Shown here piece by piece: positions 1 through 5,496 of a stretch of 64,000 nt of DNA. The translations under genes were made by a program, and so were the position numbers. How positions within the stretch are numbered: position 1 is the stretch's first letter; every line of letters starts with the position of its first letter. The stretch covers positions 54,994,001-55,058,000 of the forward strand of contig NC_135668.1 of the NCBI RefSeq assembly GCF_964188315.1. Reading direction: 5' to 3'. The DNA comes from Podarcis muralis. Taxonomy: Eukaryota. The notes beneath the pieces were generated by a model that made no database searches, was not told the DNA's origin, and was given only the letters and a program-made list of their open reading frames with translations.

Positions 1-1392
1 GGAGCCGTTTTTAAAGATGGCATCTGGTACCTCCCCGACAAGAGGCTCATAATGCCTAGACTATGGGTGCCCAAACACGTAAGAGTTCTACATCAGTGCA
101 CCCACTGGGGGAGGGATAAGCTTATAGACTCAGTCCAACGCTGCTGGTATGCCCCAGGGCTAGCCCTTGCCGCGAAGACAGCAGTCAAAAACTGCCACAC
201 CTGCCAAACCTTTAATCCAAAGCATACTGCCAGATGTCCGCCAGGCGCTCGACCGTGGGCTTTTGTTCCTTTTGAAAGTCTTCAAGTTGACTTTATAGAT
301 TTGCCCCCCTGCCAGGGCTACAAGCATGCTCTCGTCATTATTGATCAACTGACCGGATGGGTGGAATGCCTCCCAGCCCGGCGGGCTAATGCCCAAATGG
401 TCGCAAAGGCCCTACTACAGGACATAATACCACGCTTCGGAGTCCCACGGCACCTAGACAGCGACAGGGGCTCACATTTCACCTCTGAGATAGTACAGCA
501 AGTTGCTAGAGCTCTAGGGATAAAATGGAAACTGCACACTCCATACCATCCCCCATCATCAGGCCAGGTTGAAAGAATGAATCAACAGCTGAAATCACAA
601 CTAGGAAAACTCTGTAAAGATTCCGGAATCAAGTGGATCAATGCCCTCCCCCTAGTCTTACATAATCTCAGAGCATGCCCCCGAGGGAACCTGAATCTAT
701 CCCCCTATGAACTACTCTTTGGGAGACCCTCCCCCGTATATAACACCCAGTTCCCAACATCCGGGCTAGAAGTAGGCGAGTCAGAATTAACACGATATGT
801 GATACAGCTCCAGAGGCAACTCATTCGTCTCCACAGATATGCTGCCTCAAGCCAAAACATCCCCCTAGATGAAAACATCCACCCGTACCAACCAGGGGAC
901 TGGATACTAGCTAAAACCTACCACAAGGTACCCCTACAGCCCACCTGGGAGGGCCCCTACCAAGTACTTTTAACCACTCCAACTTCTGTTAAGGTAGCGG
1001 AAAAAACAGCCTGGTTGCATCACACCCGCTGTAAGCCGGCCTCGCCACCCGAACCCACTCCGGACGGGTCACCCTACCACATCCCAGGCCGACCAGCAGA
1101 CGACGACGATACCACTGAGGAGACCCAACAGACCGGACCAGATCGGGGCACGAATCGAGCCCAACAGACCGGACCAGATCGGGGCACGAATCGAGCCCAA
1201 CAGACCGGACCAGATCGGGGCACGAATCGAGCCCAACAGACCGGACCAGATCGGGGCACGAATCGAGCCCAACAGACCGGACCCGGCACACCCCACACAT
1301 CTGCACGTTGGACCTCTGAGATCATCCCAACAACCGACCAGGACGACCAACCCCCAATTCGCCTCAAACTTCGTAAAACACACGCAGTTTGA
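1..1392 (+). CDS. pol: ERV pol, 3' part (integrase); open from the window edge, gene start lies upstream of the window
   Basis: Frame +1 has no stop from 1 to TGA at 1390-1392. HHCC zinc finger (HQCTH...CHTC), catalytic D-D-E (QVDFIDL, LDSDRGSHF, SGQVERMN) and GPY/F module (WEGPYQVLLTTPTSVKV), as in class I (gamma/epsilon-like) retroviruses. Confidence 0.95.
   Translation, partial: GAVFKDGIWYLPDKRLIMPRLWVPKHVRVLHQCTHWGRDKLIDSVQRCWYAPGLALAAKTAVKNCHTCQTFNPKHTARCPPGARPWAFVPFESLQVDFIDLPPCQGYKHALVIIDQLTGWVECLPARRANAQMVAKALLQDIIPRFGVPRHLDSDRGSHFTSEIVQQVARALGIKWKLHTPYHPPSSGQVERMNQQLKSQLGKLCKDSGIKWINALPLVLHNLRACPRGNLNLSPYELLFGRPSPVYNTQFPTSGLEVGESELTRYVIQLQRQLIRLHRYAASSQNIPLDENIHPYQPGDWILAKTYHKVPLQPTWEGPYQVLLTTPTSVKVAEKTAWLHHTRCKPASPPEPTPDGSPYHIPGRPADDDDTTEETQQTGPDRGTNRAQQTGPDRGTNRAQQTGPDRGTNRAQQTGPDRGTNRAQQTGPGTPHTSARWTSEIIPTTDQDDQPPIRLKLRKTHAV
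1126..1284 (+). repeat. 36-bp coding tandem repeat (QQTGPDRGTNRA x4 plus partial) in the integrase C-terminal tail
   Basis: CAACAGACCGGACCAGATCGGGGCACGAATCGAGCC at 1126, 1162, 1198 and 1234 (identical), plus a 15-bp partial at 1270. Confidence 0.97.
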
Positions 1393-1574
1393 CAGCTCGA
1401 CAGTTTGACAGCTCCGCGTTTGACAGCTCGGCGTTTGACAGCTCGGCAGTTTGACAGCTCGGCAGTTTGACAGCTCGGCAGTTTGACAGCTCGGCAATTT
1501 GACAGCTCAGCAGTTTGACAGCTCAGCAGTTTGACAGCTCGGCAGTTTGACAGCTCGGCAGTTTGACACCTCCG
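1385..1574 (+). repeat. 15/16-bp tandem array (consensus CAGTTTGACAGCTCGG), 12 units, between pol and env
   Basis: 12 units counted directly; 11 carry TTTGACAGCTC. The first unit supplies the pol stop codon. Confidence 0.97.
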
Positions 1575-1617
1575 ACAGCTCCTCATCTTGACAACCGCGC
1601 TTCACACCACCTCAAAG

Positions 1618-3663
1618 ATGACAACTACCATACCCACCGTAATTATCCTCTCCATTACCTCCTCCCTTTCTCAACACTCCATAACAACACACAGCTCTTG
1701 TCCGGGATTACAAATGGAATACAAATATCTGGACTTTGGAATTGTTGACATGGTAAAAAGGGGGACACCAGACCGCCTAGGGGATTTTGACTTCTGCTTG
1801 CCCGAAACCCGCGTTCTCCTTCGACATGCCATACTGCCAATCCTCAACACTCACCAAACTTGGGAACTGTTTATTCGCTCGCCCACCTACACCCTACTGG
1901 GCAAGCTCACCCTTACCAAAGACGGACCTTGGAATCGAGCCCACTGCCACAATGGGTCTTATGTACTCTTTTCTGATGGCACACCCGAACAAACTCTGAA
2001 CTGGACACTACTAAACAATGGAGGCGGTGACTCAGTTTATACTGACCGAAACCACCCCACAGATCACCTAATTCATGGATTTTATTGCCAACGAGTAGAC
2101 ACTACCCCACGCCAAACCATCTTACAAGGAGTTTGCCTCCGACGGTACTGCTGCGTCTGGGACATCGGACTCGCCTCCGATTGGGACGGGAAAGCGTACC
2201 TCGAGGGCTGGCATTACTCCGTAGCACCACCAACGACATGGGACACTACCGGACCTCAAAGGTGCGGAGGCCTCACCACAAACCTCACCTACCTACTCCG
2301 CCAAGACCCCCTTCACCCCCCAGGCACCGCACCTCGACTAAGGGGGGAACTGTCGATATCCGAGAACTCTGAAAATAATGACTTTCTATCCGCTTGGCAT
2401 TCCAACACCTACGTGAAACTGATCTCCCAAATTGCAAAACAGACAACCACCACAGAGTGTTGGATCTGTGCCAACGCCCCCTCGCACCTCCACAGTGGCA
2501 TACCATTTCTTGGAGTACCTCTCACCCTACAACAACATCTCTCCGCTGACGTGCAATCCTGGAACCTGACTGCCGTGAATCTGACTCACCAGTACATCTA
2601 CTTAACTGGACCCACAACAGGCGACCTCTGCCGGAAATTCAGCGGGAACGACAAGGTCATAGGCGAGAGTACCTGTAAGTACACCATTGATATTTCTTTG
2701 AACGGGAAGATTACCTTATGGCACCGAGGCAACCCCTCTACCCAGCCCAGCCTCACATCTGCATGGAAACACGTCATGACCTTACCCGACTCCTGGGCAC
2801 CCTCCCCTGTCACCCAGTGTTTTTTCCGTACCTTCCTCACTGGGCGCATAGACTCATGCCTACAGGGCTTGTTCTGGGTTTGTGGCCACCGCGGCTATGT
2901 ATGGGCCAGCCCCCACTCCCGCGGCACCTGTTACCTCGGTCTGATCTTGCCTGGAGTCCGGGTCACCCAAGATCTACCCTCCGGAAGGAGGCGCAATAAA
3001 AGGGCAAAAGACTTATCGCAACTCTCCGATGTAGCAGCTAACAGTGAAACGTATGGCCGGGCTCTTTTCCCCGCGTATGGAGCCGGCTCCAACCACGTAG
3101 ACATCCTTAAACTAACAGACATCCTGTTAAATTTCATGGAAGAGTCCAATGCAGCTACCCAAGCTATCCTGACGGAGTTAACGGAAGTCAGGCAGACTTC
3201 GATTCAGAACCGCCTTGCTTTGGACTACGTTCTCGCCTCGACGGGAGGCGTTTGTGCCCTCGTCGGAACCGAGTGCTGCACACACGTGTCCGACCAAACC
3301 CTCAACATTACCGGACACCTTAATAACATCCACAAACTAGCGGACGGACTTAAAGATATCCAACATGAGGGACTCTCAGATATCCAGTTGTGGAGCTGGC
3401 TGCCTGGGTCTGGCTGGCTAAAACAACTCCTAGGAAACGGACTTCTGATCCTCATCACTGTAACCATCTGCATAGCTGTCTTCTGCTGCGCAGTCCACTG
3501 TTTCCCGATGTGCTGTCAAACTTGCGACTCTTGTCTCCCAACCCCTCGCCCGCGATCGGCCACCGTTTACAGACCACCAGCACCAGGGACCCAACCGAAC
3601 TGCATGGAAATGGGACCCCTGGAGGACTTCCAGAATCTGAACTCTAGGTATGACTTCTACTAA
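1618..3663 (+). CDS. env: ERV envelope glycoprotein, intact, 681 aa, gamma-type
   Basis: First ATG at 1618 in the 1588-3663 ORF. Hydrophobic N-terminus, CWIC (2458-2469), furin site RRRNKR (2986-3003), immunosuppressive-domain-like IQNRLALDYVLA, CX6CC (CALVGTECC), membrane anchor LLILITVTICIAVF. Confidence 0.95.
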   Translation: MTTTIPTVIILSITSSLSQHSITTHSSCPGLQMEYKYLDFGIVDMVKRGTPDRLGDFDFCLPETRVLLRHAILPILNTHQTWELFIRSPTYTLLGKLTLTKDGPWNRAHCHNGSYVLFSDGTPEQTLNWTLLNNGGGDSVYTDRNHPTDHLIHGFYCQRVDTTPRQTILQGVCLRRYCCVWDIGLASDWDGKAYLEGWHYSVAPPTTWDTTGPQRCGGLTTNLTYLLRQDPLHPPGTAPRLRGELSISENSENNDFLSAWHSNTYVKLISQIAKQTTTTECWICANAPSHLHSGIPFLGVPLTLQQHLSADVQSWNLTAVNLTHQYIYLTGPTTGDLCRKFSGNDKVIGESTCKYTIDISLNGKITLWHRGNPSTQPSLTSAWKHVMTLPDSWAPSPVTQCFFRTFLTGRIDSCLQGLFWVCGHRGYVWASPHSRGTCYLGLILPGVRVTQDLPSGRRRNKRAKDLSQLSDVAANSETYGRALFPAYGAGSNHVDILKLTDILLNFMEESNAATQAILTELTEVRQTSIQNRLALDYVLASTGGVCALVGTECCTHVSDQTLNITGHLNNIHKLADGLKDIQHEGLSDIQLWSWLPGSGWLKQLLGNGLLILITVTICIAVFCCAVHCFPMCCQTCDSCLPTPRPRSATVYRPPAPGTQPNCMEMGPLEDFQNLNSRYDFY

Positions 3664-3716
3664 TTTGTGCGGAGAAAAGGATTGCGCGGCTTCCCTACCC
3701 TCGCAATCTTATCTCC

Positions 3717-3728
3717 GAAGGGGGGAAC
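3717..3728 (+). other. polypurine tract (PPT)
   Basis: GAAGGGGGGAAC 54 nt after the env stop, followed directly by TG at 3729. Confidence 0.7.
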
Positions 3729-4536
3729 TGTCGCCGGAAATCGCCCCCCCCCTCAGTAACGCGTACTGCACAAGCACCACATTCACATGTACACGTGTCC
3801 CCCCCCCTTTTTTTCCAGACCTAAGAGGTGCCCCTTTAGAGGGCCACCTCTTGAAAGCCTTCCGTAAATAAGGAAGTGCTGGTTTGACAGCTCTCCGCTC
3901 TAGCGCTCCACGCCGCCCTATCCTTATTGCGAGTAGACCGGACGACTGAACTCTAGGTCAACCAGCGACCGCGTCAACCAATCAGTGTTACCGAACAGCG
4001 CCCCTTGTGGCGGCCACGCTGGTACTGCAGGCTGCGAGCGTCTGTTCCCTCCGCTTTTGACAGCTCTCCATTCATTGTTTCCGAGTTCACTGAACCGTGA
4101 CTGATTTAATCAAAATGTTGCAAGTTGTTTCCGAGAAGGGAAAGTGCTTTGAACTTCAGTGACTGTATTCTTTACAAATTCACCAAAAATCAGCCGTACT
4201 ACGGATTCCCACCGGACCACTTTTATTACACTGCATATTACAAGGACTATCAAAGGGGGGTGGATTGGGATTGATCGGCCATAATCCTTGAACCGCGCAG
4301 TCACGTACCAAGCTGCCCTTCTCCGGATGGCGGGGCAACCTTGATAGCCATCGGGAGGGCTCAGACAGCATCCCATCAGAAACACAATAGACTGCATACG
4401 GTAGTGTATTCCACACGACTCCGAATAAAGGGCTCTGGCCGGACCCCCCTCAGGGGGCAGGAAGACTTCGCCCTTTCCTTTTGTTTCTGGGAATGACTTA
4501 TGAGGAGGGGGGAGAGGAGGTCACTGCCAGGTGACA
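3729..4536 (+). mobile_element. 3' LTR of the ERV (right boundary uncertain: 4536, 4723 or 4830)
   Basis: Starts TGTCGCC after the PPT; CCAAT near 3978; AATAAA at 4424-4429; GGTGACA at 4530-4536 is a near-inverted repeat of the start. The 5' LTR is outside the window, so this cannot be confirmed. Confidence 0.55.
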
Positions 4537-4830
4537 GGCTGCTCGGATTACCTGGAAACTCCTCCCCGACTCCTCCTGTTCCTTAATAAAATCATGATGT
4601 AAATATGATGTAATTTTGGGGGTGTAGTCAAGGGGATTAGTGGTTAATAAAAGTTAGGGTCTCCCATTGTTCAGGGCTTCCATTTTGTTTCACCTCGTGG
4701 ACGGTGGGAGCCCTGTCGCGACAGTCTTTTTCTTCAATAAAGACCAGGCCTACAGGCTGCTGTTTTGCTCTGAATTGCTTTGGTTGGTGTCTTTGTTTGT
4801 CCAAGGGAGCCCTCGGATTTTCCTGTAACA
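4537..4830 (+). mobile_element. LTR-like 3' segment (second LTR remnant or extension of the ERV LTR)
   Basis: TATA-like TTAATAAAAG near 4644, AATAAA near 4736, GT-rich tail, ends TGTAACA at 4830. Confidence 0.4.
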
Positions 4831-5496
4831 GTTTCCCCTCTGCAAACCGTCAGATGGGACTGGAGGCTGCTTGCTGGGAAAGTGAAGCCCCTGGAGATCA
4901 GCCAGCATTTTGAATTTGAAATGTGCTGTTGCGCTTCCTTCATCCTCTGCTGTGCCTCAGTCTCTCTTTCGGTCCAGCAGAGGCTCCGGGGAGGAGGGTG
5001 GGGCAGCACAGAGGAATGTTGGCCTCCTCTTCTGCCGCCCCCGAAACAGCTCACAGCTGTAGCAGTCGGAGCCCTTCCTTCCCTCTTTCCCTGCCTGCTC
5101 ATTTCTGGGGCTTTCCAGAGATGAGACTAAGCCTGAGATTTCCATCTCTCTGCAAATAGCTCTCCCTGACCCAGCCCAATGGCAGCGCTGGCTTGGGATC
5201 TGTTTTTGAGTCCCAAGATCCACCCACAGGAGCCTGAAGGATCTGGAGCCCAGATCTGCGAGGAGCAGGAACCACAGGCCTTCCAGGACACAAAAATCCA
5301 CTCCTGGGCTTTATCCTTTTCAGCAGTGAAATTGAGGGGGGTGGGCAACAGGGGAGGGAGGGGGGAGGCTGTCATGTTACTTGAGCTTTCATTAGATGCT
5401 TCTTACAGATGTACTGCAAGCCCTCAAGTCTTGTGCCCACCCCTCCTCCATCCCAGGATCCCCAAATCCAGCTGGGGCTCCCCTGCTTTTTTTGGC

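Follow-up and report, generated by a model that had tools for sequence, protein, structure and literature searches.

A copy of the 3' polypurine-tract junction within env of a young lizard class I endogenous retrovirus, probably a selected, off-centre second plus-strand primer

While internal second polypurine tracts (PPTs) have so far been described mainly for HIV-like and foamy viruses, an endogenous retrovirus (ERV) of the lizard Podarcis muralis carries within its env gene an exact copy of its own PPT/LTR junction, and the question raised by this locus is what that copy is for. Here we analyse the 64,000-nt stretch of genomic DNA that holds the 3' part of the provirus (hereafter the window), together with related elements elsewhere in the genome. 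We consider the internal copy, with a probability of about 0.75, to be a second primer of plus-strand DNA that is under selection and lies off-centre. The features of the window on which the argument draws are as follows.

1 to 1392, plus strand: 3' end of pol, encoding integrase (zinc finger, core and MLV-type C-terminal domain) whose tail is a 36-nt tandem repeat; open reading frame 1-1392, Pfam rve, MLVIN_C and Integrase_H2C2
1384 to 1577, plus strand: pol-env spacer array of 16-nt units, AGTTTGACAGCTCGGC, seen as repeat families
1618 to 3663, plus strand: open gamma-type env of 681 aa, from the ATG at 1618 to a stop codon ending at 3663; TLV_coat, E 1.6e-8
1774 to 1786, plus strand: site homologous to the internal PPT copy of the sister family, degenerate here (CGC CTA GGG GAT); family alignment
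2340 to 2353, plus strand: internal copy of the PPT and PPT/U3 junction, AAGGGGGG/AACTGT, the putative second plus-strand primer; the match extends to 2355 in the window copy
2458 to 2469, plus strand: CWIC (CXXC) motif of SU, aa 281-284, from the sequence
3717 to 3728, plus strand: 3' polypurine tract and the AAC preceding the LTR; comparison of junctions among copies and the start of the 5' LTR
3729 to 4830, plus strand: 3' LTR, TG...CA, 1102 nt; over the long segment its identity to the 5' LTR is 99.9%

The 16-mer AAGGGGGGAACTGTCG occurs at exactly two sites in the whole 64-kb window, 2340-2355 and 3718-3733, as a sequence-only reading of this DNA had noted, and a search of the window for a third site with up to two mismatches found none. 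In 100 dinucleotide shuffles the mean number of matches was 0.05, and two matches were never seen (0/100). When the 3.7-kb body was shuffled 2000 times at constant base composition and compared with the 22-nt junction, the longest match was 13 nt (1/2000) and matches of 14 nt or more never arose. The internal copy sits in the env reading frame, beginning with the last base of L241 and continuing as R-G-E-L-S, so that the in-frame L-R-G-E-L-S translation claimed earlier holds within the 681-aa product; the 3' copy covers the PPT and the opening bases of the LTR. The 5' LTR of the provirus begins TGTCGCCGG (L087:2324), which sets the 3' LTR at 3729-4830. The length of the repeat had to be narrowed: bases 15-16 differ between copies (CG, CA, GG, TG or CC), and because the exact window 16-mer is present at the internal site in 12/32 copies, the family-wide conserved unit is the 14-nt AAGGGGGGAACTGT, PPT plus junction, instead of 16 nt.

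By its sequence, the element is a young class I provirus. Its reverse transcriptase (RT) finds its best PDB matches among MLV-type RTs (E ~1e-88; foamy enzymes reach 1e-46 and lentiviral ones 1e-15), its integrase carries MLVIN_C, and its Env shows the gamma-type motifs, CXXC in SU and CX6CC in TM. Following the layout given in PMC9967133, the domain order of Env is an N-terminal domain (likely the receptor-binding domain, RBD), a proline-rich linker, CWIC, a furin site and a TM with CX6CC; database matches include syncytin, ASLV, MLV and filovirus TM, and among named proteins the nearest belong to the lizards Podarcis and Zootoca. Upstream of the window is the 5' LTR (L087:2324-4242); leaving aside an 807-nt insert in that LTR, the provirus measures ~11.7 kb. 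Searching the genome with the env region gave 31 near-full matches and 6 partial ones; the env of family copies is 72-100% identical to that of the window copy, most of their env frames are open, and the ten copies with a long LTR alignment have LTR pairs 99.6-100% identical, with 4-bp target duplications. The window provirus is frameshifted in gag and in pol and is itself recombinant, its gag-pol being 91-95% identical to L054 and its env 98-99% to L052, with a crossover near 1100, away from the repeat. Recombination is frequent in this family, as this recombinant and the disagreement in topology between LTR and env trees show.

Several further properties of the provirus were observed. The 807-nt insert (L087:2439-3245) has terminal inverted repeats CAGTGTTTCCCAA and an 8-bp duplication, which we take to be hAT/MITE-like; it is younger than the provirus, whose LTR identity is 99.9%, and its end is also present in L172. 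The target duplication of the window copy has one mismatch (4831-4834 GCTT vs L087:2320-2323 GTTT) next to near-identical LTRs. A 36-nt tandem repeat at 1124-1290 lengthens the integrase C-terminus in frame. The core of the spacer array, TTTGACAGCTC, recurs twice in the LTR, at 3884 and 4058, and its TGACAG resembles a TALE-homeodomain site; the 16-nt array is a possible candidate for an internal enhancer or promoter of env.

The two repeats flank the C-terminal, CWIC-to-TM module of env, and it had been suggested that this module was captured by template switching at an ancestral 3' end now marked by the internal site, leaving the first 240 amino acids as a domain of separate origin. Congruent trees, a collinear sister env and missing joints led us to reject such a chimera. 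Nucleotide trees of the two SU halves (1700-2337 vs 2430-3030) agree save for L064, a node with support of 60 and 52, and FastTree protein trees of aa 30-238, 255-440 and 441-630 recover the same three families in every partition, with only two decayed copies (L114, L116) changing place; the halves on either side of the repeat thus share one history, and the expected discordance is missing. In the sister family both env halves are collinear, and a PPT is absent at the site where the window family has one. The search for elements running from 2355 straight into the LTR likewise drew a blank: the 31 sites with internal context and the 72 PPT-LTR sites in the genome never coincide, and the 2355-to-3734 joint was seen neither in the genome nor in four contig sets, which drop rare variants and leave its absence unproven. 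Capture of a new module at this site is extremely improbable, and the ordinary layout that had been mentioned as compatible with the protein is what we find, with the repeat inside the proline-rich linker of an RBD-PRR-CXXC gamma-type Env.

The internal site is strongly conserved within the window family. The exact 14-mer is present in 28/32 copies that cover the site, over an env identity of 72-100%, and the other four (L072-75) carry AAAGGGGGAACTGT, a single G-to-A change that replaces R by K and leaves the purine run intact. One copy beyond the 32, L084, has a deletion that begins within the site. Among 13 representatives, one copy per lineage, aligned over 986 shared columns, the 14-mer is the longest invariant run, the runner-up being 9 nt. 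None of its five third-codon positions varies, whereas in the background 14/72 two-fold and 12/102 four-fold sites are invariant, and the product of these background rates puts the chance of five invariant third positions at ~1e-4; G-ending four-fold sites elsewhere are invariant in 0/14 cases. The codon that follows changes freely (S, W, L), and bases 15-16 vary even non-synonymously. The check on synonymous sites proposed with the sequence-only reading therefore came out in favour of constraint on the first 14 nt and variation in the last two. Nine GGGG-containing purine tracts of at least 9 nt lie in the mapped part of the provirus, and only the internal copy and the 3' PPT are invariant. 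The internal copy is thus near-exact to the element's own 3' PPT, and its conservation goes beyond what the protein needs. Counting against the primer reading, two other 14-nt invariant runs (2671 and 3214) tie with the internal site in a set of nine full-length lineages. Bases 15-16 match the start of the LTR in 6/14 rows, with 3.5 expected (permutation p = 0.03), and L077 has GG at both sites; the rows are related and CpG decay confounds the comparison, so that this co-variation is suggestive only.

Could the repeat be a neutral scar, pasted into env when RT switched templates at G-runs and since kept by protein constraint on R-G-E-L? The window family's linker is 3 aa longer than the sister family's, consistent with a small insertion, and QRGEL persists in database relatives with identity as low as 64%. 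The outgroup, however, has a longer linker, which leaves the direction of the indel uncertain. Protein constraint, moreover, does not fix synonymous positions, and the sole change observed is non-synonymous and yet keeps the purine. The proline-rich region between RBD and CXXC is, in addition, described as poorly conserved in gamma-type Envs (PMC9967133). A neutral origin and persistence of this kind is quite improbable. Preferring the primer reading, we note that it is supported by purifying selection at the nucleotide level and by the matching copies that two related groups, of which one is non-coding, carry elsewhere.

The first of these groups emerged from 37 of the further env-related loci, retrieved for comparison. 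A sister family, ~50% identical to the window family in env, differs in its 3' junction, GAATGGGGGAC/TG, and repeats that junction internally as CGAATGGGGGACT, ~1950 nt upstream, where it occupies env codons 57-61. Of 18 sister copies, 15 have the 13-mer in full and all 18 have its core, AATGGGGGA; two four-fold positions within it are invariant, against a background of 12/153. Each family is degenerate at the other's internal site. The sister site overlaps DR[LM]GDFDFC, a motif that the proteins of all families conserve; part of the match may be attributable to protein constraint, and the evidence from this family is weakened because of that overlap. Seven copies of three more distant ERV families gave no internal match longer than 9 nt. 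A decayed more distant relative, L116, carries TGAATGGGGGAATT at the sister family's internal site (L116:6006); a search for its own 3' PPT found none.

The sister family also bears on the possibility that the conserved element is selected in cis for something other than priming, be it an RNA signal (nucleocapsid binding, packaging or export), an integrase att-like site or a GGAA transcription-factor site. Conservation runs on through TGT, an att-like start of U3, and we assume that the purine-rich GGAA core could serve as a transcription-factor binding site. The sister copy nonetheless tracks its own, different PPT, with neither GGAA nor TG (GACT-TT), and integrated elements beginning at the internal TG number zero among 37 matches to 2100-2600. 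We regard a non-primer role of this sort as improbable, and return to second-strand priming.

The second group is non-coding. About 40 more elements in the genome carry the window family's PPT, and the 20 such satellites examined lack pol and env and share the same 3' junction. LTR pairs of ~700 nt were found in 15/20, 14 of which are 99.6-100% identical. An internal G5-8-(A)ACTGTA is present in 17/20, in non-coding DNA 2.2-2.75 kb ahead of the LTR and without homology to env; the other three are short or only partly aligned. Not all of this speaks for selection: the satellites are 86-99% identical to one another and their internal site, embedded in a GA microsatellite, is no more conserved than its surroundings, as would be expected of a neutral scar. 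A further set of 18 satellites was also considered, 14 of which have a different junction (a G-run followed by ATAA/TG). At the same locus the letters AACTGTAG are absent from 13 of these 14 ATAA-type elements and present in L184; this presence and absence is probably one gain or loss event, because the copies are related. ATAA-type satellites are young and numerous (43 sites) with an 11-nt match to the PPT core at best, and a full junction copy is therefore inessential. Both satellite types have AAAGGGGGG tracts 1.0-1.4 kb ahead of the LTR.

The satellites merit description in their own right. L147-L184 (e.g., L147:1802-9522) represent large, young families of non-coding LTR elements, ~7-9 kb long with LTRs of ~700 nt. 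They retain at most a decayed start of gag and have PPT, leader and primer-binding site (PBS) features in common with the ERV, and are likely mobilised by ERVs of the window type. At least two LTR types swap on one satellite internal body.

If the internal copy does prime, RNase H would spare its purine tract as at the 3' PPT and would cut at the G-run/AAC junction. Starting from this primer, RT would then copy the final 1.4 kb of env, run on through the 1.1-kb LTR and likely displace the strong-stop plus strand, so that second-strand transfer and completion of the 3' LTR would become independent of the 8-kb upstream strand. Such an element would likely have originated when a short stretch of the 3' junction was duplicated into the proline-rich Env linker, a tolerant region, and selection would then have retained it. 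In HIV, bases +1, -2 and -4 are reported to influence RNase H cleavage at the PPT (PMC3185511), and in foamy viruses the strand started from the internal PPT is described as displacing strong-stop DNA (PMC4070436).

The internal copy had been called central-PPT-like, and here the earlier proposal of a functional internal primer stands in part: nucleotide-level selection and the copies elsewhere in two related groups support it, but the site is not central, and the priming itself is what we infer. It lies in env, at ~79% of the provirus, and not centrally within pol or integrase; the corresponding positions are 73% in the sister family and 53-63% in 15 satellites. Halving of the genome is therefore not the common feature, which is instead a location 1.4-2.8 kb before the LTR. 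Lentiviruses have a central termination sequence ~100 nt beyond their internal primer. A stretch of conserved A residues that might terminate synthesis downstream of the site was sought by eye in 12 lineages and not found, the A-rich stretch at ~2429-2445 varying among them. A G-to-A hypermutated copy, which would allow an editing gradient to be examined, was met in 0/47 copy comparisons. In four RNA runs env depth was near zero and splice joints were not seen, the depth being too low to show splicing.

Dual plus-strand initiation is described as characteristic of lentiviruses and spumaviruses (PMC1635257). The internal PPT of HIV primes plus-strand DNA (PMC1635257; bioRxiv 10.1101/2023.06.12.544617), and its purpose is still debated between speed, protection from editing and nuclear import (bioRxiv 10.1101/2023.06.12.544617). 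Like the HIV-1 cPPT/CTS, the lizard site is an internal copy of the 3' PPT inside a coding frame; unlike it (central, within integrase, followed by a termination sequence and giving rise to a DNA flap), it lies in env at 79%, in an element with an MLV-like RT and no CTS recognised by eye, and changes position between sister lineages. The internal PPT of foamy viruses is a short exact duplicate of the 3' PPT (PMC4261875), as here, but it is central in pol, and the lizard ERV combines a class I RT with an MLV-type integrase C-terminus and a gamma-type Env. Extra plus-strand starts are represented by the HIV altPPTs and by multiple gaps in Rous sarcoma virus DNA (bioRxiv 10.1101/2023.06.12.544617), likewise off-centre and purine-rich, and the satellites, too, have several AAAGGGGGG tracts; those starts are purine-rich sites, whereas the lizard ERV has one exact junction copy under measurable selection. 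The element is otherwise like class I (gamma/epsilon-like) ERVs in its MLV-like RT, gag stop followed by in-frame pro-pol, 4-bp target duplications and RBD-PRR-CXXC-CX6CC Env, and would differ from those described in its putative second PPT. In sequence and selection, then, the putative primer resembles a lentiviral or foamy cPPT; its position differs, and it is not classed as a central PPT. A literature search, in which older and subscription papers were thinly covered, brought up neither an env-located internal PPT nor one in a class I ERV. Walleye dermal sarcoma virus is said to have a second PPT. In the text available, PMC12789967 and PMC8278194 mention the 3' PPT only.

On a wider view, we judge the odds to be about even that this lizard class I clade practises dual plus-strand priming from a relocatable second primer, gained at least three times (env linker, env N-terminus and satellite DNA), each time matching the 3' PPT of its own lineage. 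Lying 1.4-2.8 kb before the LTR, such a primer would serve strand displacement across long LTRs and not the halving of the genome, as a central primer does. An off-centre copy that moves between lineages, in a class I virus without a sign of G-to-A editing, separates the competing explanations of the cPPT and suggests that it serves to displace a strand or to complete the LTR.

Two other regions of the elements vary, or are kept, in ways worth recording. The PBS differs among close copies (L087:4243-4265; L128-L143), where TGGCGACC is followed by ACGAAGGGAC, ATTCTCAGGGAC, GCGCTCAGGGAC, GTACTCAGGGAC or CAGATGGGAC, and the gap from the CA of the LTR to the PBS is 5 nt in most copies and 2 nt in others. 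The 50-60 nt ahead of the PPT (3664-3717; TGCGGAGAAA...ATCTCCG) recur in the satellites as well as in the window family and its sister, and may form a hairpin or other cis element.
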